38,508 nucleotides of DNA from Reclinomonas americana ATCC 50394. Its lineage: Eukaryota. The notes under the pieces are model-generated. The model was not told where the DNA came from. It saw nothing but the letters and a program-made list of their open reading frames with translations, and searched no databases. Numbering within the stretch: position 1 is the first letter of the stretch; the number at the start of each line of letters is the position of its first letter. Below, one piece after another: positions 82 to 38,000 of the stretch. The DNA is taken from positions 113,076 through 151,583 of the forward strand of contig PS015105.1 in assembly GCA_048213135.1 (NCBI GenBank), written 5' to 3'. The position numbers and the translations under genes are program-made.

Positions 82-2470
82 CAAGTGGAGCAGCTGAAGA
101 ACGAACTACACTTGATGCAACAACTGTCGCACCGCAACATTGTCGAGTACTTTGGTTGCATGCGCGAAGAGACCTCTCTGAACATCTTCATGGAGTACGT
201 GCCGGGCGGATCGCTCGCCTCGGTGATTAAGCAATTTGGTCGTCTCTCGGAGCCACTGGTCGCGCGCTACACGCGTGAGATTCTGTTGGGGCTCGAGTAT
301 TTGCACCGGAATCGCGTGGTTCATCGAGGTGAGATGTCGGAAGAGATAATCTTGTGAGACAGAAGCGTGTCACGAGCTTGTGCTTTAGATGCTCACTCTC
401 CACTCTTTGACCAGATATCAAGGGCGGCAACATTCTCGTGGATCAAAACGGTACCTGCAAGCTGGCTGACTTTGGCGCCTCCAAGGTGCTCGATCTGGCC
501 ACAGAACTCGGCACTGCGCAGGGCCAGTTCAACACCGTGCGTGGTACTCCGTGGTACATGGCTCCCGAGGTTATTCGAGAGGACGGTCATGCCAAGTTGA
601 GTTGGAGGGAATTAGAGAAGAGTTCATCAAATCACAGTCTGACAACTGTGCTTTCTCCGCAGACCGGCTGACATTTGGTCGTTGGGCTGCACCGTGATTG
701 AAATGTGCACCGGCTACCCGCCGTTCTCGCAATTCCGCAAGCCCGTGCAAGCCATGTTCCACATCGCCGCCGGCACAACACCACCCGTCATTCCCGAGCA
801 CCTGTCATCAGCGGGTCAGGTATGCTTGTGCAACACGTTTTCTGGTGTGGTGTTCATGCGCCCATTCTCACATTTCTTCATCGCTGTGCACAGGATTTCA
901 TCAAGCTGTGCCTGCGACGCCTACCACAGGACCGACCATCGGCGAGTGATTTGCTACAGCATCCGTTCATCTCTGGTGTACCATCCATTGAGTTGCGCGC
1001 GCGCGCTAGCGTGGCCCCACTTGTCCTCCACCGTGAGACTGACGATACTTAGCTGCAGTGACGCGCCACTGACACCCACATCGCCCACCGGCTCGGCCTC
1101 CATGTCGTCCAGCGGCGGATCGTCACACTACCTGACACCAGCGAGTAGCATTCGTGGTGCAGCTGGTGGTGCTGGCGGTGGCGGCGGCAGTGGTGGTGGT
1201 GCGCCCGCGGCACCCATGTCGTGGCGACCTTCATCGTTACGTGCAGATTGTCATCTTTTTTGTTTTCTGCTGCTTCTCACACTTGTGTGTCGATCGACGT
1301 ATCGCAGAATGAATCAACGGGAAGACTCGATGGCCACGATTGGCTTGCTGGATGCTGCTGTCGCTCAAGCGTTGCGTTTTCACCGTCTCACTCCTGTTGG
1401 TTTGTTTTTGGTTGCTGACGTGTGGTGGGCGACACAGTGGGCCGCGACCACGCCGCGGAAGCCTGGTGGCTCACGCCCCCGAGCACAACCCGGCACTGGA
1501 GCTCGAGCTGAAGCGAAAACTTGCTGTGGACGACGAGGACTGTGTGGTGAACGCGGATGATTCAATATTGGTGGCGCCCGCAGCCGAGGGCTACGATCGC
1601 AGCGAAGATGTGGAACGGTGGCTGTCGGAGGTTAGCTCCTTCCGTGACGATACCATCCGCAAGGTTTGTGTTCATGAAGAAGGGTCGTGGCGATGCATCT
1701 GCTCATGTCTCCTCTCCGCCCCGTCGCAGTCGCTGCACCTGGACAAGCGAACAATAACCAAGGCTTCGAGTGCGAATAGCCGCTCGGCGCGCGAGGCGCA
1801 CTCGGATCTGGTGACGACACCGCTCTACGATGACAAGCGAGAAACGCCTTCAGCCGTCCGCAAGCCGTCCCAGCCGAAGCTGTCGCCGAGGAAGCGCAGC
1901 ACCAGCCACTTGGACGCGGCACCGGAGGCTGTCGAATTACCGGACGACGACATGATGCCAGCACCACCGGCTCGGGTCTCACTAAAAGTCGACCCGCCTA
2001 GCGCCTCGTCCACCACCACCACCACCGCGGCGTATGCCTCTGTCCAGTCGCTCTCTGGCGCCGCACCGAGCTTGGAGGACAGACCAATTCGAACGGCGGC
2101 AGTGGAGGCGGACCGTGCGCGAGTCGAGCAACTCAGACGGGAGGAGGAAGAGAAGCGGAGAAAGGATGAGGAGAAGAGGCGACTGTACGAGGAGGAGGAA
2201 CGACGATTCCGTGCCGAGTTGCAAAAGTCGCCGTCGGATCCAGGCAGGCGAGATACCGTGTCACCCGTGTCGCCCGACAAGCAGCGGCGATCCATGCCAC
2301 GCGAGCTCGGTCGCAGTCCATCCAGTGGTCCGGCCAACCCGAACACACGCCGTCGCTCCCCGACGCCCACTGGCTCCGGTTCGTTGTCGGCCGCCCGGCA
2401 ACCATCGTCGCCACCTGGCACCGGGTCCGACTCGGCCGACGCCGCTCGACGCCGACCACCTCCACGGTGA
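82..2470 (+). CDS. STE11/MEKK/NPK1-like MAP kinase kinase kinase, 5'-partial, 7 internal introns
   Basis: Spliced translation gives [63 protein letters not shown] and [13 protein letters not shown]. This is followed by a low-complexity tail with a charged coiled coil ([14 protein letters not shown]); stop TGA at 2468-2470. Confidence 0.93.
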
Positions 2471-2719
2471 TAGACGGGAGACAAGGGCAGGAGGAGTGTT
2501 TTTTTCTCGTTCTCTCTCTTCCTCCTCGTTCTCTTCTCCCCTCCCCTTTTTTTGCGAAGTCGATCGGATTGTTGTGTGCGCGTGTGTGTGTGTGTGTGAA
2601 GTGGCGTATTGAGGTGACGGCGGTGTATGGCCCGTCGTCCGTAGTGCTAGTGTATGTGATGGTGCTGTGAGGCGTAACAGGGTCTCTTATTCTATTTTAC
2701 ATGCTGGTACACGAACGGA

Positions 2720-3663
2720 TCATCTGCCATGCGGCACTGCCGACACGGTGGCCGTCGTGGCCGTCACCACCGCCGCCGCAGCCGATGACACGGATGCCGA
2801 CAGCGGATCATTCTCGTACTCGACCCACACATCATCGACGACTCGCGCCCACCGCTCATCCCCACCCGCATCGTGCAGCGTCACATGCCGCGGAGCCATC
2901 TCCCCGACCTCGTCCTTGTCGCCAAGCACATCACATCCCGACAGAGTCGACGACACATGCACATAGGAGATGGTCACCTCCAGCCTAACCGCGAACAGTG
3001 TGAGTCTCTCCATCTCACTGCAGAAGACAAGCGCGAACAACAGACCGACTGGGCGATTCCAGCGCCGTGCCGAACAGAATCTCCGGCCACTCCACAATCG
3101 CCACTCCTTGTAACAGTCAGTGAGACAGTGTAGACAGGCAAAGAGTCAGAGGGCTGCTGAGAGCACCTTGTCGCGTGCACTCGGGCAGCTGTAACCTGTG
3201 CACCTCGTCAATGTGGCGCAACCGGTACAGGTCAAAGTGATGGATCGCTGCCAGCGTGTGTGTGTGTGAGTGTTAAGGTGTGAGAGACAGTGAGTGAGTG
3301 TGCGGGGTCTGTGCGCGCAACGACATGCCACCGCGGAGTTTGTCGCGTTGTACAGATTGTGCAGGAGGAATGTCGGCGAGGTGACCAGCTGTTGTTGTTG
3401 TTTCTGCTCCGACACCTCGCCCAGCAGACCGCGCACGAGGCCGCGCACAAAGGTAGTCTTGCCCGCGCCCAGATCACTGTGTGTGTGTGAGTGTGAGAGT
3501 GTGTGAAGAGAGAGGAGACAGTTGGAAGGAGTGATTGCGCGCACCCTGTGAGGTAGATCACACTGCCTTGAAGTGGTTGGCGATGAGCGAGCATGTGGCG
3601 GGCCAGTGAGTGGCCCAGGTTGAGCATGCGAGAGGCGTCGCGGATGAGAAGCCCGTGCTGCAT
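2720..3663 (-). CDS. tsaE: tRNA threonylcarbamoyladenosine (t6A) biosynthesis ATPase TsaE/YjeE, 4 introns
   Basis: Spliced motifs VIYLTGDLGAGKTTFVRG (Walker A), VTSPTFLLHNLY, PIHHFDLYRL and GVAIVEWPE are the diagnostic TsaE signature set. Introns include 3477-3544 and 3248-3321. Confidence 0.92.
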
Positions 3664-3976
3664 CTCGACGACGAGGAAAAAAGATAAGAAAAGTGCAGGA
3701 CAGCCGGTGACGTCCTTCCCCACAGATCATCGCTGCCAGCAGACTCAGTGTTCCCTTGCCCAGACAGTCTACTTGCCATCCAACAGGTGGTGCCAAGCAA
3801 GAAGACGCACGTGTTGCAAAGGACTTCGCAACTTCGAATTCGTTTTCCTTTGTCAAGAGAGCTCAGCCCGCGATCACAATTCCAACCAAGGAGAGGCATG
3901 CTTGGTGGCCACACCACGGCAGACGGCGAGCTGTCAAAGACGATCGGAAAAATGACAGGACAAGACTCGCGACCAA

Positions 3977-5072
3977 ATGCCTGGGAGCGACAGCGACGAC
4001 GAAGCCTTCTTCGACCCCGAGCTGTTCATTGACCGCAAGTGCGTGCGTGTGACTGCGTTGCTCGCCTCCGTCCTTCCTCTCACTGCAAGCGCAGCTATGA
4101 GGTGACCACGGTGGAGATTGCGCCCGATTTTCAAGTGTCGCTGAAGAGCCTCGTGCATGCGGCATCGAGTTTCGTGAGCACACCCACATGCACATGCACA
4201 TGCTCATCATCACATGCTCACAATTGCACAATGCAGCCGACTTTGATCTCACCGGGCAGGTGATGCATTCATCGTCTCTCGCTCTTCCTCGCTCATCTCT
4301 CATGACGACTGCAGGTCATCTGGCCTGCCAGCAAACTCCTTGCACATTACTTGTACGAGCAACGGTGTGTCTACTGCTCTGCTCCCTCCATCCTTTGTCG
4401 CCTGCACGTTGGCACTCACACGAGCTGGTGGTGCAGTGAGTCGCTGAGAGGCAAGGCGGTGCTTGAGCTGGGCGGTGCGTGCGTGCGCTGGTGGTTGGCG
4501 CACTGTGTGTGTGTGGTTTCTCACTTGTATGCATGCAGCGGGAGCTGGTCTTGCTGGCCTGGTGGCCGCGCAATACGCTGCGCACTGTGTTATCACCGAC
4601 GGCGAGCCACTGGTTGTCGACCTGCTGCAGGAGAATGTGGAGCGCGGTGAGACGATGAGCTTATCGGGCTCATCGCTCCCACTTTGCACTCATTGCCTGC
4701 TGTGCACGCGCAGTGGAGTCGCATCCGGATCGACGAGTGCGAGCATGTAAACTGCGCTGGGGCGTCGATCATCTCGACGATCTCGGCGAGGATCGGCACA
4801 CTCCATTCGACCTCATCATTGGTGCCGACGTGCTGTTCTGGGAAAAGGGCGTGCCGCTCATGTTTGAGACAGTGACAGAGCTGCTGCAAGAGCGGCCAGG
4901 AGCACACATGATTTTGTCGTTTGTGGATCGCGTGTCACGCATCACGGCGGCCGCATTTGCCGAGGCCGAGCGGAAGGGTTTGCGAGTAGAGGAGCTGGAG
5001 GTGCCGTTGTCGGCGCGCGAGTCGATGCAGTGTGCACAGTGGCCGCACCTGTACCGCATTGAATCACGATGA
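3977..5072 (+). CDS. Seven-beta-strand protein-lysine methyltransferase (Methyltransf_16; METTL21/23-like), 6 introns
   Basis: Spliced motifs STDFDLTGQVIWPASKLLA, VLELGAGAGLAG (motif I), VITDG, LRWG and FDLIIGADVLF (DxxF/Y motif). Confidence 0.9.
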
Positions 5073-5109: not shown

Positions 5110-6276
5110 TCATGGTGGCCTCCGCGCCTGCAACTGCTTCTGCTGCTGTTGTTGCAGCCAGCGTTCAAGCTCCTCTGCCTGCTGCGCCATGTCGTCTTCG
5201 TCGTCGTCAAAGTCATCATCGAAGAAGTCGTCCAAGCCGTCGAAGTCCTTGGCGGCGGCCGACCTTGTCGTGGTCGTGGTCGTCGTCGTTGTGGTGGTGG
5301 TTGTTGTGGACGTGCTCGTGCTCCTGCTGCCGCTGCCGCCAGTCGCGGCGATGGCGGTCATTGGCGGCAACTGCAGCTGCGGCGTCGGAAAGAACGGCGC
5401 CGACATGGGCAGATGCAGCGCCATGGACAGCGGTGGCACATACAGCGATGCCGACGGAGGTGCCAGTGGAGCTGGCGGTAGCGATGGCGGCGGTGGCGGT
5501 GGTGGTGGTGGTGGAGGTGGCGGTGGTGGTGGCGCCGCCTGTCCAAGCGAAAACGGCGGCATTCCACTCCCGGAACCCACAGCCCAACTCAACAGCGGGC
5601 TGCTGGAGACTGCGCCGCCGAACGGCGACATGGCCGGACTCTCGGCAAACGCATCGACACCGCCCGGTCGCACCGCCACATGCGCCGCCATTGCACCAGC
5701 AAAGCCCGGAACTGGCGGCGACGGCACACGCCGCAGAGAGTCCATGGGCACTCCAACCAGCGACGGAGGCGCCGGCCTGCCAGCGGCCGCCGCCACCTCC
5801 GTCAAGTGCTGCAACAACCCAGCGATTTGAGTTGCATGTCTCCCTGTGCACAAACACTCCAATCGCACGCAACATTGCGCAGCTCGGTCTCCGAGATGAA
5901 CAAGTCGGCCTCTGTCGCTCCCACTGCCTGCGCCGCTTCCACCAACCGTTCCCGTTCCGCACGCAACTGCGCCTCGCGCTTGCTCAACGCCTCACGCACA
6001 CTCCACAACACATAGTACTCGGCCTCCAAGTCCGCCATCAAGTGGTGCGCTTGCTCCACCTTCTCCCATCGAGCACTGCATCGACAGTGAGCACGCAAGC
6101 GGAGCGAGCGACACTGCAGACAGTCAACATGCACACAGACCTGTCATTCTCCACACCAGAATCCGGCACCTCCGCTGCACTCTGCAGTGAGTCACACACG
6201 CACTGGCGACACAGAGACAAGCTCGCTCACCTGGTGGTCGGTGTCGCTTGCGACTGCCCGGTCGCGTTCCCACCAT
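5110..6276 (-). CDS. Hypothetical protein: basic N-terminus, coiled coil, poly-Pro/poly-Thr, acidic C-terminus; 3 introns
   Basis: ATG 6276 (MVGTRPGSRKRHRPP, NLS-like) splices in frame to ARWEKVEQAHHLMADLEAEYY...ETELRN. A 65-nt intron (5809-5873) then joins HLTEVAAAAG...DDFFDDDFDDDEDD...ARRPP*. No family recognised. Confidence 0.6.
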
Positions 6277-6334: not shown

Positions 6335-8117
6335 ATGTTCACCGCGATCCTCGTCGCGCTGCTCCTCACGCTCTTCCTGATCGTGTACGTGGCCCTGGTC
6401 AGCATGCGATGGGTGACCGGCAGCTGGCCGACCTCGCTCAAGTCGGCGGCAATGCCTCCGGTCGCCGCACTGCTCACCAGTGACACGCTGGCCTTTGTGC
6501 GACGTCTGTGGACGCAGCGAGTGCGCGAGTGCCGTTGCTCACCTGCACGCGAGTTTGTCGTCTATCATAGCGCAAGGTACGGGGTGCGCCACGTGTTGCA
6601 GGATGACCGTCTCTCTTTGACGCTGTCTCTGCTGTAGCAATCCACTGTCACTGTTGACGCTGCAGCTGGTGATGCGACTGGCGCAGCGGCATCGGGACGT
6701 GCAGGTGACTATGCGTACGATCCCCAGTGCGGAAAGCGAAGTCGCGTCCGGATCGCCGGTGCACTTGTCTCGGGAGTGGGCGTTGCGCGATGCGCTGATG
6801 GTGGCGCCGCACTATGGCCTGCGTCTGCCACGTCCTCCGTTCATGGCAGCGGCAGCTGATGGAGCGGTCGATGAGGAGCGACGGAAGCTGTGGGAGGAGC
6901 ACATGGCGCACTGGCAGCGTATGCTGGTGGCGGCCGAGTACGAGTCGAGTGACGCGTATGTGCGTGTGGCGTTCCAGGCGTGGGAGGATGCGGAGGAGGT
7001 GCCGCCGGATGGCGATGCCGTGGAGCTGGTGTTAACGACGGACTCGCTGCTGGCGCTCAACATGCGCGAGCTGGTGGGGCGCGGCTACTATTCGGCGTTG
7101 CGTTGCTTGTCGGCGGGCCACCTCGTGGACGAAGAGCTCATTCTCTCTCAGCGGCGTGGTGTTCTACGACGGCGAGGCGTTTACCTTCAACCGACTGCAC
7201 ATGCTGGCGGCCAAGATCGGCGACAGTGGCACAGTGACGGCGCCACTTCCGTTGGAGTTGGTGCCGACACCTCTGCCGCGCACCACCAACTTTGTCAACT
7301 TTTTCTTCTCCGTCCGCAGGTGCATCGTCCCCAATGTGCACCCTCGCCACCGAAGACACTGTGCTCACTCCACTCACTCGCTCTCTCAGCCCGTACTCCT
7401 ACCTGGCATTCGACCGTGTTGTGCACCTGTGCATCGAGTACGGTGTGCACACGACAAGCAGCTCCCCCCCCTCCTCTCTCTCTTCTCCCCCAAGTTCTCA
7501 CTTTTCCCTTCCATCCCCTGACACCAGGACTGCATCTTCGCCTGCGCTTCCTGCTACCCATGGTGCGCCGTGGCATTCCACTGTCCACGGCCAAGCGCGC
7601 GTACATTCTGCAGGACGCCAAACGTGTGGCCAACAGCCTCAAACTCCCGTTTGGTTGGATCTGCGACCCGCTCGGCGACGGTGCCGAGCGTGTTCTCCAA
7701 GTCGGCCACTACCTGTCGGCCCTCGACGGCAGCGCCGAGAGCAGTGCCGGCCCCAACGTTGCCGCGCGCTGGTTCTCCGCCGCCATGCGCGGCATCTTCA
7801 GTCTCGGGTGGGATGTGGCGACCGACGCAGGCCTGCGCCGCGTGGCCGACCGCGCCGCCGTCTCCTGGCCAACCGTCGTCGAGGCACTGGAGCAGCCGGC
7901 CGAGGTGTGGCAGGAGGAGGCCGAACGCAACCGGCAAGAGCTGGAGGCACTCGGCATGTGGGGCGTGCCGGCCTTCCAGTGCGACCAGTTCACCGCGTGG
8001 GGGCAGGTACGCCGGTGCACGTAACGCCAAAACACACTCGCTCACACACGCGCTCCACAGGATCGTATCTGGCTGCTGGAACGGTGCCTGGCCGCCACAG
8101 CCGAGGCCAGCAAATGA
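6335..8117 (+). CDS. Tandem-domain DsbA / 2-hydroxychromene-2-carboxylate isomerase (GST-kappa superfamily) protein with N-terminal membrane anchor; 5 introns
   Basis: C-terminal domain has FFFSVRSPYSYLA, LLPMVRRG, YILQDAKRVA, DPLG, GMWGVPAF and WGQDRIWLL. A degenerate N-terminal copy has YHSASNPLSLL and GYYSAGVVFYDGEAF..NRL. The start is hydrophobic (MFTAILVALLLTLFLIVYVALV). Confidence 0.85.
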
Positions 8118-8175
8118 ATACTCATTCGTCTTGATGATTGCCACGACGATACGGATGATCTGCATGCATCACTTG

Positions 8176-8773
8176 TCAGCTAAAGGGGGGCGGAGACACC
8201 TGCAACGACGCAACACTGCATGTCGGCCCACTGCTCGCCCACAGCGTAGTCCAGTGCCTCCACCGTCCCCATCTTGGCGCCCTGCAGCATGTACACTGTG
8301 TCGCCGCACAGCAAATCAGTGACGAAAGCACAATCAACACTGATGATCCTTGATGGCGCACCTGGTCGCCCATATCGCACGATGATGAACGTCGGCAATG
8401 CCACCACAGCGTACGCACTGGCCGCATCCACCTCCTGATCCACATCAATCTGCATGCACACACAACGAAGCATTTGAGTGTCGACAGACAGAGAAGCACT
8501 CTCTCTCTCTCTNNNNNNNNNNNNNNNNNNNNNNNNNNNNNNNNNNNNNNNNNNNNNNNNNNNNNNNNNNNNNNNNNNNNNNNNNNNNNNNNNNNNNNNN
8601 NAGCACACACGCACATGCGCATGCGCAGACAACTCTACATCTGCACGCAACGGACTGTGGAAGAAGAGCACGAGCAGACGATCCACTCCCGGCGTCATTG
8701 TCTCATGCACCTCATACGCCATCTCGCCACTTGTCACATCCACAATGCGCGGACCACCACAACACGCACCCAT
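8176..8773 (-). CDS. Thioredoxin-family protein with N-terminal MGACC acylation motif (active-site exon lost in N-gap)
   Basis: LLVLFFHSP before the gap; IDVDQ, AYAVVALPTFIIVRYGRP and VYMLQGAK after it. The 3' end is ambiguous (8176 or 8180). Confidence 0.8.
8513..8601. other. Assembly gap (N run) next to a (CT)n microsatellite
   Basis: N bases in the sequence. Confidence 0.99.
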
Positions 8774-8867: not shown

Positions 8868-11800
8868 ATGAGTGTCATGCATCGCCGTCGCGATCCAGTG
8901 GTGGAACGTTGCGTGTCTGTCTGTGGCGCTCAAGTGAGATCCAGATTTGGACTCGTTCATTGTATGCGTGCGATCAGTGGCCGAGGACGTGCTGGTTCGC
9001 GTATGTGAGTTCTGCACTGCGATGGATCTGCTTCGTGGCGTGCAACTGACATGCAGGTTCGCGCGAGATGGTTGTGGCGTGGCGTGTGTGTGTGCATTGA
9101 GTGATTGATCGCTGCAGGCATTGGCGATCGGCGGTGCTGCGGGTGCGATCGCTTTCCGTGACTGGCAGCGGCAAGAAGATCAAGCTCGATGCACCTGCGT
9201 GTCGATCGTTGGCGAGGTGTTCGCAGCTTGCGTCTCTGCCTGTCTCTTTTCCGCCGTCGCTCATTCGAGGGGAGCAGGTTTTGCCGAGTCACGCATCTGC
9301 GCTTCTCCGGGTGCACGGTACCGCGCGATCTGTTCCAGAGCTTTGCGCTGACGCCGAGCGTGAAAGACGAACCGCTGCCAGTGGAGGAGGAAGCGTATTA
9401 CGACGATGACGAGGAGTATGAGGACGAGGATGTCGTCGGCTCGCCACTGGAGCACCCGGTGCGACGGCATGCGTTGCGATCGGTGGAGTTCAACACGTGC
9501 AAGCTGCCGGCGGCCGACAAGAACAGTCTGAATCGAGCCTTGTCACTCGAGTCGAGTTCCTGCTCGTTTCTGCTGACGGCCATGAGTCGCACGCCGGCCA
9601 TCACGTTTTCCCACGTGCATCTGGGCGTTCGCGAGTTGTCCGCCGTTCTCAGCCATGCAGGTGACACCGTGGACTGAACTGGCATAGTCTCTCGCTCTCT
9701 CAGACGCTGTTCCTCATTCTTTCTCCCTCGCTGTAGTGGTGGGTCGGCGGCTGGTGGCACTCGAGTTGCACAATTGTCGCGGAATCGAGCAGTCGGTGCT
9801 GGTCATTCCTGCATGTGCGTCTCTCACTCCCTTGCGGCTCGACACTGGTCGACGAGCTAACTCGCTCGATCCCTTGTATTCTCTGATGCGTAGCCATGAC
9901 GACCTTGCGACGCCTCTGCTTGACTGTGTCGCAGCCTGTGGTGGTACACGCACCACAGCTGCAGCACCTGGCCGTCGACTCACCACAGCGGGCGAGTCCT
10001 CTGACACTCCAGCTCAGTAAGGCCACTGCGCAGCACCTTGAGTTCTTGAGGTTGGTCGACTCCAGCAGTCTCATCTCTCATGTCTCTCTGTGCTCATTTC
10101 GGAGCATGTGTTCTCGCTTCAGTTTCGCCGGCCACGTGACGGGCTTTGATGTGATTCGAGAAGAGGTTGGAGGGCAGGCAGGAGACGGCGACCATCTTGC
10201 TGTGGATAGACCAGTGTCGCCCCTGAAGAGACTCGGTGAGTGACTGGCATGTCATCTAAGAGTTCTGCATCGTCCTTATCCCATTTGGTAGTCCTCGACC
10301 TGAAGAATGGCAGCACGATCACTCTGTTCCGACTGACTGTGGAGGTGTGTTCGTGTCGGTGGAGCGCCTGGCTACTGATGCTCACGATGATAGATTTGTC
10401 GTGCAGCTTGGCTCAATGCCGCACCTGACGCACCTGACCATATGTGGTGGAACTCTCGACGAGGGCACCGTCGAGCACCTGGTCGAGCGCACGTTGGCGG
10501 GTGGTAATTTGCGCAAGCTCAAGCTCCTTCGTCCCGCTGTGCCGGTTCGCATGTCGATGTGTTGCGCACGAATAGAAATGTCCACGATCCCATGTGCGCG
10601 TGCGCAGGAGAACGCGGGCGTGGCTCCTGCTGTTACCCTGACGGCTGTTCTGAGTGCTGTACCGAGGCTCGAGTCACTGACTCTTGGCGGACTGCGTGTT
10701 CCGGGAGAGATACGGATTCGCTTGCGCCAGCTGCGCAAGCTGCGCGCCTTGTGGTGCTCCATGCGTGAACTTCATCTCGCCACGCCGGCACTCGAACGGT
10801 TTGAGAGCACCTCGTCTCTCGCCTGCGATTTTCTGTCGACTTGCTCACTTCCAGTTTGTCGCACAGGCTGCAAGTGGATGGATCCGACCGACTGGCGTCA
10901 ATCACGGTGGAGGACGATGCGCCTCTGCTGTTGCTTCGCTACGTCGATGTGACCGGCACGCTGATCGATGACGCATGCTTCACTGCCCTTCTCCGCGCGC
11001 CACGGTTTGCAGGGCGTGTCGGGTCTGTTCCCCTTGCAGCTGGTCAGCTTACCGTTTCTCCCTCTCTCTCCGCGGTCAGGTTGCAGCGCGTACGTGCCGC
11101 TCACTGCTCACGGTTGCAGAATGTGCGCGTGCCGGAGACGGCGAGAGAGCTCGGTCTGCTGTCGGTGCAGGAGTCGGCGGGTGTGGAATCGGTAAGCGTT
11201 GCCGGTCGGCCTGATCTCATTCTGTGCACGCATGGTGCGACGGGCATGCGCCGAATCGATGTTCCGCGAGGTATGAGCGCAGCACAACGCTGGGTTCACA
11301 TAACTCGCAAGTTGACGATGCATGTGATCCACACAGGAGGCGTCTCGTCCCTGACACTGACCTCGGTGTATGGCGGGCTGTCACTCGCCAACCTTGTACA
11401 TTTGACGGACCTCTCCCTGGATGGTGCGATCCGATTGGAGGATGCTACGGCCTTGCTCTCTGGACTGCGCTCACCACTTCGCCGTCTGAGCTTGCGTGGC
11501 TGCTCGAGTCTGCGGTCGCTGAGCTTGCACGATGCCGCGGAGGATGGCATCGGACGATGGCAGTGCTTGTCGACACTCTGCCTCACTGGGTCTGTCTGTG
11601 TGTATGTTGATATTCTCTCGCTGCTGCAGTGTTGACCAACTGACTTGGCACATCCAGCTGCCAAAATCTGGAGACACTGACGTTGGCGTGTCCGTTACTG
11701 GAGTTGATCATGGGTCTGGAATCGCTGACACGATTGCACACGACTCACCTGTGGCTGCCGCGGCTCCTCTCGCTGAGCTTGCCACCGTCGTCGGATGCGA

Positions 11801-16461: not shown

Positions 16462-16469
16462 GATAAGTT

Positions 16470-16550
16470 CGCGCCGGGCATGATTCGAACATGCGCGGGT
16501 TTCCCCAGTTGATTTCGAGTCAACCGCCTTGACCACTCGGCCACCGACGC
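16470..16550 (-). tRNA. tRNA-Ser(CGA), intronless, no encoded CCA
   Basis: Acceptor stem GCGTCGG/CCGGCGC with G73; anticodon arm GTTGA-CTCGAAA-TCAAC; long variable arm GGG-GAAA-CCC; T arm GCATG-TTCGAAT-CATGC. Confidence 0.97.
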
Positions 16551-26402: not shown

Positions 26403-28561
26403 CATGCCACTCTTCGACCCGAACGCCACGTTTGCCAGCTCCACTGCCACCTCGCCGAGTGCGACACCACGTGGCAGTCAGAGCAGCACACCCGCCATTC
26501 CCGAGTGCGACTACACCGACAGTGGCAACTCGGCCGTCAACGCCGATGGCTATCCCACCTCTGGCAGCTCGTCCGGCCGCTTCTCGCCCGTCGACCCCTA
26601 CCTTGGTGGCCTGGGCACAGCCAGTGGCGGCATCGGTGCCATGGGAACGGCGCTCGCGGACGACGGACTGCGTGGATCGTCGTCGGCGTTTGGCGGCAGT
26701 GGCCTGCTGCCGGGCAACAGCAATGGCTCGTACGGCAACATGGCGACGGGCAACGGCAGCGGCGGCATTGTGGCAGGATTCCCGGGTTCGTCGGGTATCG
26801 GTGGCCTCAACGGCCGCTTCCCCGACTGGTTCCAGTCTCCGGAGGCCTCGTTGGAGACGGTCGACGTGGTGATGCTGGATGCCACCCTGACGCACCTGTT
26901 TTCGAATCAAATGCTGCGTGCGGAGAACCCCAAGTTCCCCGGCTCGTTCTTCATAGGCAATGTGATGAACACGCTGCGAAAACATCTGCCGCTGCTCGAC
27001 ATTAGTTTGCAGCAAGTTGCGTTTTGCACAGAAGAAGATGAGCTCTTGCTGTCTTATACTGACGCTCGCCCTTCCTCTTCTCCAGCTGGCGCGCTTTGCG
27101 TACGAGAGCCCCAAGTACCACGTGCATCTGTCGGCCGAACTGGTCAAGACACAAATCAAGTACGTGGGCAAGCAGCATCGCGGTGCCTTTGCGCCGCACA
27201 TGTCCATGCCTCCGGGCGGCATGCCGTCTGCGGGAGCTGGTACCATTGGCCAGCAACAACAACAACAGCAGCAGCAGCAGCAACAAATGCCAGGTGGTGC
27301 CGGCCGTGCTGGTGCTGGTGGCATGATGCGTGCGCCCGGCGGATTTGCTGCTGCTCCCGGCAGCAGCAACGGCTCCGGACGCGGTCTGCAGCCGCCCTCT
27401 GCGGTCGAGGAGTTCCGGCCTCGGCAAGTGACTGGCGCACCGGTGTGTTTGTGTTCTTTGTCATTCGCTTGTGCATCCGTGCCTGACGAGTGTCGTGGCA
27501 GTCGTATGCGCAGTACGCGAGTGGAATGATGCCGTACGCCACGTCTGCCTATCAGATGCAGCAGCAGCAGCAACCTGCTGCACATGCGCATGGGCATCAC
27601 TATGCGCCCAACGGTCGCATGGATGCACCGTATTATGGTGGCCCGAGTGCCGGCAGCATGCGTTACGGGCCACCGATGCAGCAGCAGCACCAAGGACGTG
27701 GTGCGCCGCGTGCCGCCGCCGACTACATTCCACAGCAGTTCCAACACGACTTGCCACCCGGCTACGGAATGATGGGTGGCAATGGCGGTGGTGGTGGCGC
27801 GTCGGCCGCACCGTACTATGCACCGGCGTCGCATGATGGTGCGAAGTACTGTGTAGTGCTTCCTTCTCTATTTCGCTGTCTGCTCACCGTGTTGGTTGCA
27901 GCGTCGTCGTATGGGACACATGCGTATGGTCGTCATGGAAGTGGTGAGTACCAGGTGCCCAGCGGCACCTGGTCGAACGGACCCTCAGCGCTTCCATTCT
28001 CGGTGCCGCAACCGCAGTCGTCCGCATTTGCGCCGTCACCGGTTCGTTTTCCCGGCTCTGGTCTCACTTTCGTTCTCTCCTTGGTGGTCGATTTGTTGAC
28101 CACCGGTTTCCGTTGTGCACAGTCGTCGGACGCACTGTCGCCGTGGGGCACGCCAGCACCACTGCAGGAGTACGCCAGTTGGACAGGCGGCAGCGGCCCA
28201 AGCGGGCGTGAGTCCTCAGGTGAAAACCCTCATCTGCTGCTCTCGGCCCGCTCGGTTGGCGCAGCGGTCGCGGGTGGATCGTCGGCGGCGTCGTCGGCAG
28301 TCTCCTCCGCCACCTCCACACCCTTCAGCTCCTTTGGCTCCACTCTCTATTCGTTCCCGCCAGGTTTGCGTTTCCCTCCCCGTTTCCGATTTTCATGGAT
28401 CGCCAACTGACTTGTATTCTCCCGCAGTTTCCGAGAGCGGCGGCAATGGAGGCGGCAGCACCAATGGACACGGTGCGAGTGGATCGGCAACAACAGCCGC
28501 CGCCAGCAGCGGCGCTCCTCCCGATCTCATGGACATGCTCCGCTTCATTGATCATCAGTGA
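26403..28561 (+). CDS. Coding exons after the gap, probably the C-terminal part of the LRR gene: G/S-rich linker, small globular domain, Q/G/P/Y-rich tail
   Basis: Long open exons with canonical introns, ending PPDLMDMLRFIDHQ* at 28561. Same strand as the LRR gene, but the linkage across the gap is inferred. Confidence 0.7.
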
Positions 28562-29158: not shown

Positions 29159-30451
29159 ATGAGGCTTCGAGCGGGAATGCATGGTGCCCAGGTAAGCCTT
29201 GCGCGCGCTCTCTCTCTCTTCCCTCTCTCTCTCTTCAGTGAATGAAACTGGTGTGTGTCTGTGCGTGTGTGACAGGGCTGGCGACCGACCATGGAAGACG
29301 AGGAGATTTGCGAGTTGGAGCTCAACAGGGCCTTCAACCTGTCGGGCTTTCCGGAGCCACACGCCTTTTTCGCCGTTCTCGATGGTCACTGTGGCAACAT
29401 GGTGCGTGTGTCATGTCTCCACGTGTGTGTGTCTGTGTGTCCACTTCACCGTCTGACAAGATGACGACAGACCTCGAGGTACGCCCGCGATCACCTGGCG
29501 AAGAATGTGGCCAGCCACCCGTTCTTTGGCAGTTGTGTGCTCTTGCTGCTGCTCCTGATAATGATGATCTCGGTGGTGATGCTCACCCCACTTTCCGTGT
29601 GACGCACAGTCGACGCCCGACAGGCGTTCATCAGCGGGTTCCAGAAGACCGACGAGGAGCTGCGTGCAGTGGAGGAGACCGAGTCGGGTTCCACCTGCTG
29701 CAGCGTGCTCATTCGGTGCGGTGATCGCGCAGCTGGTCGTTTTCGATTCTCGTCCGCGCTCACGTCTGCTTTTGTGCGGCAGTGGCGATGAGGTGTTTTG
29801 CGCCAACTTGGGCGACAGCCGTGCCGTGCTGTGCGAGGATGGCTCGGCTGTGGCGCTGAGCGTCGATCACAAGCCGGACGAGTTGCGTCGTATATCTCCA
29901 CGCTCCGTTGGCGTCCACAGCTGGCTCATATTCTTGTGTGTGTGCGGCAGTTCGTCGGAGAAGAGGCGCATTGAGGACCTCGGCGGTTTCGTGGAGATGG
30001 GCCGTGTGAACGGCATCCTCGCCGTGAGGTGTGCCACCCCGCCATGTGTACACAATTGTATGGTGTGTCATGGATTCACTCACTGTGTTGCTGGCTAGCC
30101 GTGCGTTTGGCGACTTTGAGTACAAGCAGAATGGCAAGATGATGGTCGAGTGCACACCCGAGGTGGAGAGCCGCACCCTCGGCCCGTACTCCGAGTTCAT
30201 CATCATTGCCTGCGACGGGTGTGTAGCAGTACTTTGTCTGTGTACTGTCTGTAGCTCGGCACTCAAACAATTCGCTGGACAGATTGTGGGACGTGATGTC
30301 GAACAGCGAGGCTGTCGGACGCGTCAGCGACAAGCTGAAGGAGGGACTGGAGCTGAACGACATTGCCGAGTGGCTGTGCAAGGAGGCCATCAAGATGGGA
30401 AGCACCGACAATGTGTCAGCCATCATTATTGTGCTCGACCACAGCGCCTGA
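29159..30451 (+). CDS. PPM/PP2C-family protein phosphatase, 7 introns
   Basis: [63 protein letters not shown] and [11 protein letters not shown]. Confidence 0.96.
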
Positions 30452-30716: not shown

Positions 30717-33453
30717 TTACAACATGGAGCCGCTGCCACCAGTGTACCCGTAGGGTGGTGGAGGCTGACCGTAGGGCGGGGGAGGCTGGCCGTATGGTGG
30801 TGGTGCTGGCTTTGGCGGCGGCTGGCCCGCCACTTGGCCGTACGCCGGCGGCGGTGGTGGTGGTCCCGAGCTGACCAGCCTGTCGTAGGCCGGCGGCGGT
30901 GCCAGCAGCGCGCCCCCACCCACTGCCTGTCCGTACTGAGGAGGCGGTGAGTAGGCAGGTGGTGGACGCGAGACAGGCGCCCGATAGTCGCTGCGCGAAT
31001 CACAAAGTCAGTGGAGCAAAGAAAACAACAGAAGACTATAGAAGCGCACGATTGAACAGAGGCCTCCACCGGGTCCATGCGGCGGTAATCCGACGTGACG
31101 ACCTCGGTGGTGACGGTCTTGCGTCGCCGTCGGCAACAGCAGCAGTAGATGATAATGGCGAGGATGATTGCGCCGCCCACACTGACCGTGACGGCAATGA
31201 TAATGGTGTTGCGATTGCTGCCGCTCTTTGCATCGACCGTGGCTGCGCAGGCGGGCAGACGGGAATGAGCAGGTGATGATAACACACGAGGGGCAAAATT
31301 CCACCGACGACAAACCCGAGTAGAATGGATTGCTGCCGGAGGCCGCGGCAAACGACACCGAGTATGCCCACGCTGGACACTGGAAGCTGTTGACGGGCCC
31401 GAACTGTTCACCTTCGGTGCACGTGCCCGGGGTGCCGCCGACGGCCGAACACCAACCGCACCCAGCGTTCTGCACACACGACGACTGGGTCGTGAACTGT
31501 GTGCAACCTGCACGAAGAGGGGAAGACATTATAGAATTGTAGATGATTCTATTGTGTGTGCGGTACGTACCGAGCGTGCAGTTGGGGTTGCTCTTGGTGG
31601 CAAAGCCGACGCGCTGATTGCCCATGTCAAAAATGGTAAAATACTGGAGCATCAGTGGTTGACCAATCACGGCACCCTGCGAGGTGCTGGAGAGGAGAAT
31701 CTGGCAGGTCGACTGTGTGGCTGACACACTGCACACAGCAAGCAAGCATGGTTAGAGAGCAGCACCGCGTTGTCCGTGGCTTTCACGACACATTAACAAC
31801 GCAACGCTGCGCAAATGTAATAGGCCGAGGGTGGAATCTGCAGCACCACATCGACGAGATTGGCTCCGCCGACGGTGATTTGCAGTGTCGGTAAAAACGG
31901 GAGCGTCGACGGCTTGGTGCAATCGGTGTCGCCGTGTGCGCGGCAAATCGGACTAATGACATTCATCGCCGCAAAGTAGTCGTTGGTGGGGACCTCCAAG
32001 TCTGCCAAGGAGGTGGAATAAGAGCCAAAGGTCGATGAGGAGTGAGTGCGTGTAACAGAAAAAAGGTGCACTCACCAGTGGTGCCACTGTCGACAATGGT
32101 GCCCGAGAAGCTGCCGTTCCAGTCGGCCGGATTCGACACGATCGGCGTGTTGCCGACAGACCACGACTTGAAGAAGACTGCAATGCGTGCGCTGGGTGAG
32201 AACGGCGGAGAAGAGCAACAAGAAACGCACAATGAAAACGAAACTGGTGTAGTACCCGGTTGCCGATCGCGTTCCCAACACATTGACCAGTGGGGCCCAC
32301 AGCAGCGAGCCCTCGACATACTGGCTCGTATCCGGCGTGCCGAGTGTCATGTAGCCAGTGACTACGTTGTAGCACAGAGAGAACATGGGGGCCAGCTGCG
32401 CACAAGGAGAACATTGGTCAGCATCACAACAAAAACAAAAAGGTGACGCGACACGAAACATTCTGCTGCTGCAAGAAGCTCGACAGTGCCGACTGAGTCT
32501 GTGTGTTGGTACCGACGCCGGTGAGCGAGTCGAATGCAAGTCCCATGATGCCTGTGTGTGTAAGGATGCTGGTCACAGCCAAGAGTGAGAGACGCTGGCT
32601 CGTAAAATTGACGAACCAGACACCTCGGGTGCCGTGAACGGCTGCCCGTTGCCACCCGACTCCTGCGTGATGACGGTGAACACGGCCCAGGCGGACGGAC
32701 CGCCGAAACTAATCGAGTCGGTGTACATGTATCCGACGAGGCCGCCGGTTCCGTAGTAAATTGTCTGCACGGCGATGAGTGACATCGGAAGAGTGGGCCA
32801 CCAGAACACACGTACCGTGCCGCAATACGACGAGTTGCTCTGCGCCGCCGTCTGACACTGGAACGGCGACGAAGCATTCGCCGAAATGTACTTGCCCGTG
32901 GTGCTGTTGGCCGGATTGAACAGGCGCACGTAGTGACCCACCGACTGCACTCCCAGGCCTGAGATGGCCAGATTGCTGGATCCCGTGTCGAGAATAACCA
33001 GGAACGTCTGCGGCGGTGTGCCTGACACATACGAATGCACAGGCGCAGTATCAGCGTCGCTCAATCGCACCACTCGAGCAATCCAATCAAAAACGACGCA
33101 CCAACAGACAGCATGCCCACGTACTCGCCCGCCGTGAAGAAGGTGTTGGTGGGCGGAATGGAGGTCGCATGCACCGCATCGTGAGAGCGCGGTCGACGCG
33201 GGAACATGCTGCGGTTGACTTGCATGCGCTGCACTTGCATGTGATGGCGCACAGCTGGAGCGGCAAAATCAGACGACATGAGTCGTCGTTGCGTCGACGA
33301 CGATGAAGGTGATGACGGCGATGAAGAAGAGTGCATTGCAGTCTCTGGTGCACTCGAGTCACGGTCGACTCGCGACGCGAGAAGCACCACCAACAGCACC
33401 GCCGACATTGTCATCAGCGCAATCGCCCATGCTCGCCATGACAGCCGCTGCAT
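30717..33453 (-). CDS. Membrane-anchored pepsin-family (A1, BACE-like) aspartic protease with PSI domain, TM helix and PPxY-rich tail; about 11 introns
   Basis: Catalytic motifs LDTGSSNL and IVDSGTT; flap YGTG; IMGLAF; VIGQPLM..FDMGNQRVGFA. PSI-type CTQFTTQSSCVQNAGCGWC..C..CP. TM segment IIIAVTVSVGGAIILAIIIY followed by CCCCRRRR. Confidence 0.92.
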
Positions 33454-33747: not shown

Positions 33748-35035
33748 TCACCAGAGGACGGGGATCACGCGGTCACGCGTGGCCAGCATCTGCTCAATGT
33801 GTCGCGCCTGCAGCTCCTGCTGCACCGCCAGTTCGATAGCTGGTCCGTCAATCGCGGCCGGCACTGCTGCTGGCTGCGCCGATCGATTGCGAAGGTCTGC
33901 ATATGTCACGAAGTTCCGAGGTCAGTTCGCTGTCGAGCGGTGAGGCGAGGAAGCAACAGCAGCAGCATATACAGCAACTGGAGTGCGGTGCCGTCGGTGG
34001 TGCCTCAAAGGGCGGCAGTCGAGGTCGGGTCTCGGGAGGCGCTGCGTGCCAGGCGGCGGCTCGTGCTGCGTACCACTTGCGAGTGTCGTCGGCACTCTGG
34101 CACAGGTTGATGATGACAAAGGTCAGCATGGCCCTGCACGCAAGCCGCACACGAGTGAGTGCCCCGTGCGTGGCATCGTCTCTCCAGGCGCACTCAACAT
34201 GACAGCGTACGAACGCAAGCCGGTGGCGGCAAAGAACGCGGCGTACAGGATGATCTCCGCAAAGTAGTGTGGGCACCACAGGTAGCGAAACAGCGGTCCG
34301 TGCGGCACACGATAGGCCTCCAGCTCCGGACTACCAGCTGCGCCCGGGCCAGAGGGTCGCAGAGCGGCGAGTTCGCGGTGCACCATGTGCTGGATCGCGG
34401 TGCCAAAGACATACAGATACAGAACGACCATGAAGAGCGACCAGTGCTGGTGCGCGGCGCGATAGTCGGCCAGCACCACTGTGGGAACCGCCATTACGTA
34501 GAAGCTCAGACCTGCATACGTGTGTGTGAGCAGACGTCAGCGCGGCCAGGCATGGAGGCTCAGTGCGACACGCGCACCAAAGACAAAGTTGAGCAGCGTC
34601 ATGCGACGTGGCGAGAACTTGTGCACAAACAGGCATTCGTACACGCGGCGCAGCAGATGCACCGCATACAGGGCGATCATCACCTGCCTCGTGCTGCTGC
34701 CTGCGATGAGATGATCAGCAACTGCATGCACTCTATCTCTCTCTCTCCGTGAATGCAACGCAACAAGCGCCTTCCCCACACCAAGCGATGGCCAGCAGCA
34801 CTGCCCAGGCGGCACCAAACACATAAAACAGTGTGAATGCAGTGCCGTGCGGCAGTGTCGTGCTCTTGGTGGCGGAGACAACTGGTGCAGAGGCGCGTGA
34901 TGACTCCGCCGGTGGCACTGTCAGCTTGCCGTAGAGCGTCAGTCGATGGAACCAATGCCACCGTGTGCGCACGAGTGCCAGCACACAGGCCAGCGACCAG
35001 TAGATGGAGCACAGTGTGCTCAGCGACAGAATCAT
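33748..35035 (-). CDS. SRD5A3: Polyprenol reductase (SRD5A3/DFG10 family, steroid 5-alpha-reductase fold), 4 introns
   Basis: YGKL, FTLFY, HLLRRVYEC, QHMVHRELAALR, YRVPHGPLFRYLWCPHYFAEIILY, NLCQSADDTRKWY and terminal RDRVIPVLW*. Confidence 0.88.
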
Positions 35036-35089
35036 TGAGTGAATAGTGCTTCGTCCTGCGTCACAGATCTACAAGTGTTCTTTACAAGA

Positions 35090-38000
35090 TTACGGGGCAC
35101 TCTTGTCCTTGGTGGCGCTGCGTCGCGCTTTCCTCCGCACGGCCTTGGCATTCGGCTGGCCCTCGGACGACAGCGGGATTTCCGAGGTCTTGGATTGCTG
35201 ACCCAGAGCGTCGACGACGACCTGCTCGGTGCCGTCAGCGGTCCGTGGTCGCCCGTCGTCGACGTGCTTCTCGGTCGACGAAGGCGGGGGAGGCGGAAGC
35301 TTGGTGCCGGATCGTTTCGGGTAGAAACGGCTCATGCGCGCATCATCGCTGCCGGCGGCGTTCTTGGCGTCGGACTTGGACGTCGAGGCGGAGGTCGATC
35401 GTTTCGCCGCCAGCGCCGTATTGCCCTGGCCATGGTGGTGGTGTGCACGTGAGCCGGTGGGCACGGGATCGTGTGGCGGCAGCGACAAGACGCTGCGAAC
35501 AAAGTTGTCGATCTGTCGCAGAGTGTGACTGCCGCGAAAGACGTGTCGACCGAGAGCGGCGTCAGTGCCCCCGATCGATGTCTGCGGCGAGCTGTCGACG
35601 GTGGTCACCGCGCGATTGGTGAAGGCCACCACGGCTGGCACGCCGTCCTTGATCTAACGCACACGCAAAAGAGAGTGAGGGTGAGGGGCGAGTTCTGTGC
35701 GAGGGGTACACCACACAGTACGCACCAGCAACTCCACATCGGCGGGAATGTCGTTGCGCCACACATCAATGGCGCAAAACGAGGCATCGGGTCGGTCCGT
35801 ATACAGTGCCGACGCGTTCTCGTACACCGGCAAGAATCGCTGGCAGTACACGCACCCTGGCGCGCGCACCAACCACGAGTCAGCACCAACGGCAAGCAAA
35901 GGCACAGCGTGCGACGCCACACGCAACCGGTGGACTGGAAGAGCACAAAGAGCGTATGCGGTGTCGACTGCTGCTGGATATTGGTGATTCGCTGCACCAG
36001 CGAGTACGCTGTGAGTGCTCGAACCGAGCCGTTGAACCCCGACACTGTGTGCATGCATGACAAATGTAAGCGACTCTGCGCAACACCACACGCTGCCGAC
36101 AGACAATGGCGCACATTGATCGTCCGACTGCGACACCAGCGTACGCTGCGACGTTGGCGACGGTGCCGTGAGGTACGACCGCAGATGCTTCAGCGTGTGT
36201 GTCATTGGCGGATCCAGCGTCACGGCGTTGAACGCAAAGTGTTCCTCCTGTGCATGTGTACACGTAAAGAAAACATGAGAACGCCGACCAGCGTCACGCC
36301 CCATCGATGTTCCGCATCGAACCTTGTAGAGATCGAGAATGACCACTCCAGGCGCCTCGTGAACACCGAAACGGTTGGCCAGGTCGCGGTACTTGTGCAT
36401 GTCGGCGTACATGAACGAGAAAATGTCACGGAAGCTGCCGGCCAGGTCCGCCAGCCAGTGCACGACGTGGGGGAACGGGCAACTCGATTCTATCACGTGT
36501 GTGCGCACACAGAGGCGTTCAGTAGAGCGACAGACTGGTGGATGCACTGCATGGCAGAGGCTGACCTCCACAGCCGGTGTGCGGATCGTCAAAGTCGAAA
36601 AACAGAATCACCGACGGGATGAGGGTCCCATCTGACATGGTGCTCTGCAGCAGCTTTTGTGTCTTGGGAGTCAACTCAGCCTGCGATAGGCGGAGTAGGG
36701 ATTGAGTGGACCAAAATAGGAGGGTGGAGGAGGAAAAGGGGTCAAAGAGCGTGCGCGTGACACGCAACTGCCAGCGGCGCGGCGGCTGCAGATACGCGAT
36801 CAATGACTTCCGCCACACTGATCTCATCCACGTCCTCGAACACAATCGACACCGCTTCCTGCAGACCCCACTTGCGCACGACAAGGCGACACTTTTCTGC
36901 CGAGTTGGCAAACGCCGGCAGCACCCTATACGACAATGACAACAATGTTGAGTCACGCAGCATCAACATCATCATCCTCATCGCTGTTGCACGAAACTGT
37001 TCGGCGAGTGTGCCGTTGGTGATGCGACTGAACTCAATATTTGCATCCGCAAAGGCTAGCGCCATGGCAGCGCGCTCGGTCATCATGTCGACTGTCGCCA
37101 ACAAAGAAGAGAGAGTCAACGCAGAGCATACACAACTATCGACAGGAATGCATCGCAACATGATTCGTGCACACACGGCGGCAGAACGACCAGCGACGAT
37201 CGCGCACTCATGAGCAGCTCAAAGTTATCTACCGACTCGATCGGGATGAGCACGGTGGGGCGAATGAAGCGATCGACAAACTCGACAATCGGATCCACAC
37301 GACGAGGTCCCTGCATTTTTCCCGCATCAGTCAGTCAGCGAGTGGCGACCACAGCGCGTGTGAACAGCAACACGCAACCTCGTAGGCATGAATAAACTGT
37401 CGCTCTCTGCAAGGAGGGGCGATGAGAATGCATGCACACGTGCACAAGAACGGTGCCGGCGACGACAACGAACTTGAAGAGCGCCAAGGTCGGCGAAAAG
37501 TTGACACGTGTCGAGCTCTTGAAGTTGTTATCCAGCGCTCCCAGCTCCACGTGCAACAGCGGAACACTGATGCGCCCAAGCTGCACCTCCAGATCGCCAA
37601 ACACCTCGCGCCACAGCTTGTAATACATGTAGTCCCCTGCACACAACCAATCAGCAGAGACGGCACAGGGTTGTACAGTGGTGCAGCACGCAACAGGGCG
37701 TAAAGATGACCACCAGCGCCGCCTTTTCTGCCGGCAGCGCAGCGATCCAGTCGGTGCCGTTCTTGGTGTCGATCACCAGCGGCTGATACGACGAGCCAAT
37801 CACCAAGTCGCAAACAAAGAACTGCTCCTCGCACACCTCAATGCGACGAATCGGTGGTACGCGCGAGGTTGGTGGTGGAGGAGGTGGAGGAGGTGGAGGT
37901 GGAGGAGGTGGAGGAGGAGGAGGTGGAGGCGGCTCGACTTCCGGTGTCTTCCCCTCGGCAACAAAGATTACTTGCGAATCGATAATCGCGCCACTTGCAT

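Follow-up and report, generated by a model that had tools for sequence, protein, structure and literature searches.

Genes and donor motifs of the window

We analysed a stretch of 38,508 nucleotides from Reclinomonas americana ATCC 50394 (contig PS015105.1, positions 113,076 to 151,583), called the window in the following, in which two forms of 5′ splice site (donor) occur side by side. Ordinary donors read GTNNG (class 1), and a second form reads GTT-N-N-G (class 2), with the G at +6. The window (38.5 kb, GC content about 57%) is eukaryotic DNA with dense genes and short introns. Pfam scans of six-frame open reading frames and predicted exons, together with our own gene models, gave 17 genes on both strands. 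These include genes for a MAP3K-like kinase, TsaE, a lysine methyltransferase, a DSBA-like protein, a thioredoxin fragment, an F-box/LRR protein and an MFS transporter, followed in our list by a Rab GTPase, CCT8, a ribonuclease-inhibitor-type LRR protein and PP2C, and by an aspartyl protease with a PSI domain, a steroid-reductase-like protein (steroid dehydrogenase) and a PDI-like protein. Gene models at the runs of N (8513-8601, 17916-18336 and 25393-26346) are incomplete, since these runs interrupt the thioredoxin fragment, the 5′ end of the Rab gene together with the rest of the CCT8 gene, and an LRR gene, respectively.

An earlier reading of the letters alone (the sequence-only reading) had listed 34 donors carrying one extra T. 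All 34 have the hexamers given for them and read GTT[G/T/A][C/A/T]G: GTTGCG is found 21 times (17 times as GTTGCGT), GTTTCG six times, GTTGAG three times, and GTTACG and GTTGTG twice each. On the two strands together there are 23 copies of the heptamer GTTGCGT, compared to an expectation of 9.54 ± 2.97, and none of 100 dinucleotide-preserving shuffles reached 23. The more degenerate motif GTTKMGT is found 38 times in the window versus 20.5 ± 4.7 times in shuffles. Seventeen of the 23 GTTGCGT occurrences are donors from the list. One of the other six lies in a coding exon, one within another intron and one at 8214 (minus strand), and three are intergenic, antisense or past the last modelled gene. 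The observation of a second donor class is confirmed as real and beyond chance.

Splice junctions and gene-finder tests

The strongest test available for a junction is whether Pfam profile coordinates or the residues of a homologue run on unbroken across it. By Pfam continuity, ungapped homologues or repeat period, nine class-2 donors are fixed to the nucleotide (596, 17285, 17873, 18956, 24689, 29882, 32244, 32459 and 35927). In the kinase gene, removal of the intron 596..662 (plus strand, GTTGAGT) makes position 175 of the Pkinase profile, the split codon 176 and position 177 contiguous, and in the homologue P0008 the flanking blocks are separated by exactly two residues. In the Rab gene, the intron 17223..17285 (minus strand, GTTGTGT) joins positions 88, 89 and 90 of the Ras profile. 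The GT-AG reading of this intron yields N, which we take to be the Ras consensus residue at this place. The donor of the Rab intron 17785..17873 (minus strand, GTTGCGT) is the sole GT that rebuilds the P-loop GDSGVGKS; the sequence-only reading had named the motif GDSG/VGKS for the Rab gene. For the PP2C gene, splicing of 29882..29950 (plus strand, GTTGCGT) makes profile positions 143, 144 and 145 contiguous, and if this intron is left unspliced the gene finder reads into sequence that is not PP2C-like.

Homologue residues and repeat periods fix further junctions. Downstream of the CCT8 junction at 18887..18956 (minus strand, GTTGAGT), 22 residues align without a gap to the kinetoplastid-like CCT8 homologues P0031-P0034. 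Two introns of the aspartyl protease gene, 32178..32244 and 32396..32459 (both minus strand, GTTTCGT), give ungapped alignments to P0059, the first of them through YYT/I. In the LRR gene, the intron 24689..24765 (plus strand, GTTGCGC) restores two successive 28-residue LRR periods. The intron 35857..35927 of the PDI-like gene (minus strand, GTTGCGT) keeps what we take to be the thioredoxin spacing F-x4-C before CxxC, with five residues counted from F to the first Cys. Pfam support at this PDI site is partial. Ordinary donors of the same genes pass the same continuity test, for example those at 329, 17418, 30029 and 30219.

Protein searches with single exons returned 27 matches for the kinase (the top one with 63% identity) and 28 for CCT8, where the best named match is Bodo saltans with 74% identity over 48 residues. 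An aspartyl protease exon gave five matches by HMMER, three of them usable, and none by word search. No protein identical to the window exons was found with the kinase and CCT8 exons, which may simply reflect an unannotated genome. A metagenome scan with the DSBA-like exon gave no match, and one with the CCT8 exon gave 70 loci, all with at most 67% identity and too distant for testing donor conservation.

Beyond the nine fixed junctions, 22 further sites belong to frame-consistent introns of 55-115 nt that end in AG, placed by the gene finder or by hand, most of them with a CTSAC-type branch motif. Altogether, 31 of the 34 GTT donors are paired with an AG acceptor that keeps the frame, and the length is not divisible by three in 29 of 34 class-2 introns. 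Class-2 introns start with GT, end with AG and restore the frame when removed, as is characteristic of U2-type introns. Minor (U12-type) introns have the donor consensus RTATCCTT and the branch site TCCTTAAC. This type was ruled out for class 2, where the donors read GTTGCG, GTTTCG or GTTGAG and the branch motifs are of the CTSAC form seen in the other introns. A family of introner-like repeats was ruled out as well, since no class-2 intron bodies are linked by similarity: an all-against-all blastn comparison of 114 introns gave 11 matches, nine of them on (GT)n runs and two reciprocal ones between two class-1 introns of the MFS gene. Because the bodies resemble each other only in (GT)n runs, they do not form a repeat family.

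Gene models were built with a simple Viterbi gene finder of our own, run in a donor-agnostic version and then with a score bonus for both donor classes. The donor-agnostic run chose 14 of the 34 sites; it was noisy and went wrong at junctions fixed by Pfam. With the bonus, 25 and then 26 of the 34 sites were found. In a decoy test the bonus was given to GTNNG plus one added class GT-X-N-N-G. With T as X, the gene finder used 26 of the 168 motif occurrences, needed 7 instead of 21 non-consensus donors and gained 110.6 in score. The other bases performed poorly: with A, 1 of 97 occurrences was used (gain 1.3), with C 6 of 222 (gain 15) and with G 17 of 599 (gain 32), and the non-consensus donors remained at 20-21. 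This shows that the second donor class is specific to T at +3.

Without class 2 among the permitted donors, the gene models reached a summed score of 1301 instead of 1451. Seventeen of the 33 introns affected moved to another GTNNG donor, ten to non-consensus donors, three were read through and three broke the gene. Among the 17 GTNNG replacements only three lie within 6 nt and use the same acceptor, and many are 37-96 nt off, so that Pfam-supported coding sequence is deleted. Models were thus broken or distorted at 33 of 33 sites. Gene finders trained on a single donor matrix would get about one intron in four wrong.

These results bear on the possibility that class 2 is an artefact, that is, that boundaries are mis-assigned and nearby standard donors are used, or that the assembly is wrong at these sites, by an extra T or by a T in place of G. 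In its favour, the junctions are deduced from the DNA sequence; at four sites a GT five bases downstream can be used by the gene finder with another acceptor, and three sites have an in-frame ordinary GT within 6 nt. Against it stand the nine junctions fixed by homology or periodicity, two of which have an ordinary GT close by that gives the wrong protein spacing: at 17285 the GT 3 nt downstream adds one residue, and at 24689 the ordinary GTCTGA donor at 24683 (6 nt upstream) gives an LRR period of 26 instead of 28 residues. If the first intron base were a G-to-T error, the mRNA would gain a base, and frames that profiles fix on either side of the junction would be lost. A shift of both boundaries by one base would need introns with non-AG ends, and the downstream exon begins with G in just 6 of 33 cases. 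The GT-AG reading moreover gives the better residue at 32459 (L, as in P0059) and at 32244 (I, where P0059 has V). Finally, a spurious T would leave G at the last exon position (-1) in about 80% of the sites, and it is seen there in 9%. We consider an artefact of either kind very improbable.

After five hand corrections of gene models, our census contains 120 introns, of which 81 are class 1, 34 class 2 and 5 other. A class-2 share of 28% agrees with the "about a quarter" of the sequence-only reading. The 34 class-2 introns of the census comprise 31 of the 34 listed earlier plus those at 13270, 16819 and 20888, which come from the gene finder only and of which 16819 and 20888 are weak. Class 2 is present in 16 of the 17 genes, alongside ordinary introns.

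Differences between the classes and a proposed pairing with U1

Apart from the donor, the introns of both classes look alike. The median length is 68 nt and the GC content 0.55 in each class. The branch motif CT[CGA]A[CT] is found in 66 of 81 class-1 introns (median distance to the 3′ end 20 nt) and in 28 of 33 class-2 introns (21.5 nt). Introns end in CAG in 69 of 81 and 30 of 33 cases, respectively, and the 3′ matrices are alike as well (G at -4 in 57-62%, C at -3 in 85-91%), giving a GCAG end. Pairing between the intron ends, as in the non-conventional introns of euglenids, was dropped as an explanation because the 3′ ends do not differ between the classes. Within the branch motifs CTCAC and CTGAC predominate, and CTAAC is rare.

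The 5′ splice sites differ in a regular way. Class-1 donors have G at -1 in 80%, G at +3 in 58% (T 17%, A 15%, C 10%), C at +4 in 46% (T 37%, A 17%; G at this position is excluded by the class-1 definition), T at +6 in 56% and G at +7 in 47%, which bears out the consensus that had been proposed for the ordinary donors. In class 2, G is found at -1 in 9% and A in 45%, and further into the intron G at +4 (76%), C at +5 (79%), T at +7 (79%) and G at +8 (52%) prevail. Positions +4, +5, +7 and +8 of class 2 thus mirror +3, +4, +6 and +7 of class 1. When the class-1 matrix is applied to class-2 intron starts, the log-likelihood is -173.4 if they are read one position back and -422.2 if read at the same position, with -231.6 for background. 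The last exon base (-1) is G in 65 of 81 class-1 donors versus 3 of 34 class-2 donors (Fisher p = 4.5e-13), and in class 2 it is most often A (15 of 34). Written as RNA with a slash before the intron, the main class reads (A)G/GUGCGU(G) and the second class (C/A)A/GUUGCGU(G).

These differences suggest that class-2 donors are recognised by pairing with the 5′ end of the U1 snRNA (small nuclear RNA) in a register shifted by +1. We give a rough probability of 0.6 to this reading, jointly with the proposal that class-2 introns are genuine U2-type GT-AG introns which differ from their neighbours at the 5′ splice site only. The recognition string would lie one base deeper in the intron, and U would take the place of the first intron G of the main class. 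G+1 would then lie opposite C9 of U1, replacing the exon-final G; U+2 would be mismatched opposite C8, and pairs would form between U+3 and A7, G+6 and C4, and U+7 and A3. The cut would stay at the sole available GU, and its position would be set by the later U6, U5 and Prp8 steps. The shifted frame predicts that the exon-final G is dispensable, that U is found at +3 and that G is found at +6, which are the three features seen in class 2 and also those that mark a shifted-register site.

We infer both the pairing to U1 and a standard U1 5′ end in this organism. With the U1 5′ end as printed in PMC4856993, class-1 donors form on average 6.49 pairs in the canonical and 3.49 in the shifted register, and class-2 donors 3.58 and 5.98. 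On this assumption, the shifted register gives more pairs than the canonical one for 31 of 33 class-2 donors and for 3 of 81 class-1 donors.

The sequence-only reading had left the choice between a shifted and a bulged register open. In the bulged register, the exon end and GU pair in the normal frame, one U at +2 or +3 is bulged out and pairing resumes at G+4. The displacement on the intron side would by itself fit such a bulge, and one-nucleotide bulges at +2/+3 are documented at a few dozen human sites, with 68 predicted and 54 retained (PMC4856993). The human sites share the GUU start and the G displaced to +6. They need pairing of the exon end in the normal frame, however, which would keep the exon-final G paired to C9 of U1, and this G is lost in class 2 (3 of 34 versus 65 of 81). 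The loss fits the shifted register and does not fit the bulged one. In line with this, the log-likelihood of the class-2 exon side is -180.3 in the insertion or bulge register and -136.7 in the shifted register. Moreover, the extra base is nearly always T, and A, C or G at +3 is at noise level. A bulged base need not be T, but a base that pairs with A7 of U1 must be, which speaks against a bulge. The shifted part of the earlier proposal, backed by the fit one position back and the obligatory T at +3, was thus retained, and the bulged part, for which we see only a slim chance, was not.

Several points weigh against the +1-shifted U1 register. On the exon side the shifted model lies only slightly above background (-136.7 versus -141.9); what is shown firmly there is the loss of G at -1 and not a positive pairing of -1 and -2. 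The junctions are read from DNA, and the pairing count rests on the assumed standard U1. The sample is one 38.5-kb window, the census comes from a home-made gene finder, and the matrices were built on models picked with a bonus for the very motifs they describe. The bonus ignored positions -3 to -1, +3 and +6 to +8 in class 1 and -3 to -1 and +8 to +9 in class 2. It also excluded G at +4 (class 1) or +5 (class 2) and gave one point for T at +6 (class 1) or +7 (class 2), so that the frequencies of T at these two positions are partly selected for. In addition, C at +5 of class 2 (79%) is a mismatch with standard U1, which hints that something besides standard U1 pairing shapes the consensus.

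The same C (+4 in class 1, +5 in class 2) is left unexplained by pairing with standard U1 and might point to recognition that is not driven by U1. A UGCGU core could be read mainly by U6, U5 or a protein at variable distance, and the cut made at the GU just upstream. The core indeed lies one or two bases from the cut, depending on the class. Such recognition appears improbable, because the obligatory T at +3 and the switch from G to A at -1 are predicted by A7, C9 and U10 of U1, and no factor or alternative pairing was identified in this analysis.

As possible causes, the sequence-only reading had proposed variant U1 or U6 snRNAs or relaxed pairing of the U6 ACAGAGA box. A dedicated snRNA is indeed conceivable, namely an additional U1, or one whose 5′ end is changed (for example opposite U+2), that pairs fully with GUUGCGU. 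The abundance of class 2 (34 of 120) and its consensus, which is tighter than that of class 1, would be expected of a matched partner. Lineage-specific U1 5′ ends exist as well: ACAAAC in Entamoeba, which has GUUUGU donors, and ACGUAC in Mastigamoeba, which has GUGCGC donors (Roy and Bowser, bioRxiv 10.1101/2022.06.08.495308), and the two U1 genes of one diplonemid differ at their 5′ ends (PMC12621601). On the other side, Thecamonas and Mamiellales favour C at +4 and yet have a standard U1 (bioRxiv 10.1101/2022.06.08.495308), and the Rfam scan found no snRNA gene in the 38.5-kb window, its only match being one tRNA. Loss of G at -1 is equally expected of a dedicated snRNA and of standard U1 in the shifted register, so that the present data do not separate the two. 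We regard a dedicated snRNA as unlikely, though worth keeping in view.

Comparison with known systems places class 2 closest to the mammalian shifted-register sites (Roca and Krainer, 2009, as summarised in PMC4856993). These are also cut at GU, with the U1 pairs moved by one position, an exon-final A, and G at +6 followed by U at +7, and the cut is unchanged because later steps define the cut site. Their description as a rare exception in mammals by the sequence-only reading is in accord with the same source, in which all validated non-canonical U1 registers together account for 1.5% of 201,541 human donors. In contrast to these rare sites, about 28% of the introns in the window belong to class 2, with its own tight consensus GUUGCGU. 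Tandem donors of human STAT3 have likewise been proposed to bind U1 and U6 in non-canonical frames, but there a single exon is concerned, with an alternative choice between GUs 3 nt apart (PMC11162779).

Among protists, Entamoeba and Mastigamoeba resemble the window in a lineage-wide departure of the donor from GUAAGU, and Mastigamoeba has GUGCG-type donors with C at +4. Each has one consensus and one altered U1, whereas in the window single genes carry two consensus forms that differ by a one-base offset. The ordinary class G/GUGCGU resembles the GYGCGY donors of Mamiellales and the +4C donors of Thecamonas, which go with a standard U1; a second, shifted class is not reported for these organisms in the available text of the same preprint (bioRxiv 10.1101/2022.06.08.495308), in which the words "shifted", "bulge" and "register" do not occur. 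In gene orientation and splice signals, the window also differs from six diplonemids, which have GTATG donors and few branch motifs (PMC12621601), from Diplonema papillatum with 1.6 introns per gene and unidirectional gene clusters (PMC10161547), and from Andalucia godoyi, most of whose genes are intronless (PMC7050145). No report of a GTT-N-N-G or shifted donor class in any protist, or of a pair of such offset consensus forms in any one genome, was found in the literature, with supplements and subscription journals outside the scope of the search.

We would group class 2 with a rare mode of 5′ splice-site recognition that is already known, as a variant striking for its frequency. What is seen in one 38.5-kb window suggests that the +1-shifted register is routine in this lineage. 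We see about even odds that it is the standard second mode of intron definition there, used by more than a quarter of the introns and maybe served by a second U1 or an altered U1 5′ end. If class 2 is a major and sharply defined class genome-wide, the spliceosome tolerates shifted-register recognition as a routine, and the reading frame of U1 would be uncoupled from the cut position on a genomic scale. The genome would then offer hundreds to thousands of natural substrates for the question of how the cut site is fixed after U1 leaves, and a natural system for the fixing of the cut by U6, U5 and Prp8 independently of U1.

Remaining class-2 sites and side observations

Several of the remaining introns were picked even by the donor-agnostic gene finder. 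On the plus strand these are 1371..1437, 11803..11872 and 27016..27085, all with GTTGCGT. On the minus strand they include 34134..34198 (GTTGAGT) in the steroid dehydrogenase gene, 37637..37694 (GTTGCGT), and 16846..16919 (GTTGCGG) in the Rab gene, eight residues beyond the end of the Ras profile. The intron 36654..36768 (minus strand, GTTGCGT) was chosen by both versions too and is weaker, with a length of 115 nt, an AAG acceptor and no branch motif found. Likewise picked by both versions, the MFS intron 13821..13879 (minus strand, GTTTCGT) is preceded by a micro-exon of 16 nt (13880-13895); together, this micro-exon and the splice at 13879 rebuild ELYPTQ/IR, presumably a conserved MFS motif. 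A second micro-exon, of 23 nt (4237-4259, plus strand), follows the methyltransferase intron 4169..4236 (plus strand, GTTTCGT), which was placed by the gene finder. Each micro-exon has a class-2 donor on one side, and each rebuilds what we take to be a conserved motif.

Gene-finder models with the bonus further contain 7097..7151 (plus strand, GTTGCGT), 16196..16268 (minus strand, GTTTCGT), 37311..37378 (minus strand, GTTGCGT) and 24218..24312 (plus strand, GTTGCGT), for which the acceptor is at 24312 or 24320. In the PP2C gene, 29532..29609 (plus strand, GTTGTGT) has an in-frame ordinary GT 3 nt downstream as a possible alternative. The aspartyl protease intron 31729..31805 (minus strand, GTTGCGT) has a gap close by in the homologue alignment, which is therefore not decisive. 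The candidate introns 1236..1307 (plus strand, GTTACGT, 72 nt and thus a multiple of three) and 20427..20488 (plus strand, GTTACGC) come from the gene-finder model alone and had been flagged as uncertain in the sequence-only reading.

Other introns were set by hand. In the TsaE gene, 3248..3321 (minus strand, GTTGCGC, 74 nt) is frame-consistent and lies between positions 27-66 and 67-94 of the TsaE profile, with about four surplus residues. For 5809..5873 (minus strand, GTTGCGT) the gene finder favoured the GT 5 nt downstream, which gives a 92-nt intron without a branch motif. The introns 8908..8977 in the F-box/LRR gene and 12191..12252 (both plus strand, GTTGCGT) were placed by hand as well, and splicing of the former gives an N-terminus that we take to be F-box-like. 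The intron 992..1058 (plus strand, GTTGCGC, 67 nt) is frame-consistent and has a CTGAC branch motif; it lies past the kinase domain and so has no homology check.

Three sites of the list remain candidates. The claimed donor 8646..8651 (minus strand, GTTGCG) has a run of N that begins 50 nt downstream. The candidate intron 23819..23900 (plus strand, GTTGCGT, acceptor likewise a candidate) is part of an N-terminus that is not conserved, and the gene finder models this stretch differently. The candidate 36926..36997 (minus strand, GTTTCGT, with a candidate acceptor) has 72 nt, is in frame and free of stops, and may be retained coding sequence; both its retention and its removal leave the protein intact, and it might be a facultative intron. 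Two extra candidates are absent from the earlier list. One, 13270..13328 (plus strand, GTTGCGC), was chosen by the gene finder, including the donor-agnostic version. The other, 8160..8214 (minus strand, 55 nt), reads GTTGCGT, CTGAC and CAG from donor to acceptor; alternatively, the reading frame just ends there.

Four modelled donors fall outside both classes: 4260 (GTGATG), 7320 (GTGCAT) and 10949 (GTGACC) on the plus strand and 33978 (GTTGCT) on the minus strand. With G at both -1 and +6, 4260 could be a genuine case of the bulged register; 33978 resembles class 2, with T replacing G at +6.

A stretch of about 2.5 kb (21100-23600) has no confident gene model; it contains two long open reading frames on the plus strand (21435-22403 and 22325-23248) without a Pfam match. 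The sole Rfam match of the window is a gene for tRNA-Ser (anticodon CGA, 16470-16550, minus strand) between the MFS transporter and Rab genes. Microsatellites of the type (GT)n/(CA)n are frequent in introns and intergenic sequence, for example at 1-20, 2578-2598, 3258-3270 and 17845-17865, and often directly follow donors.

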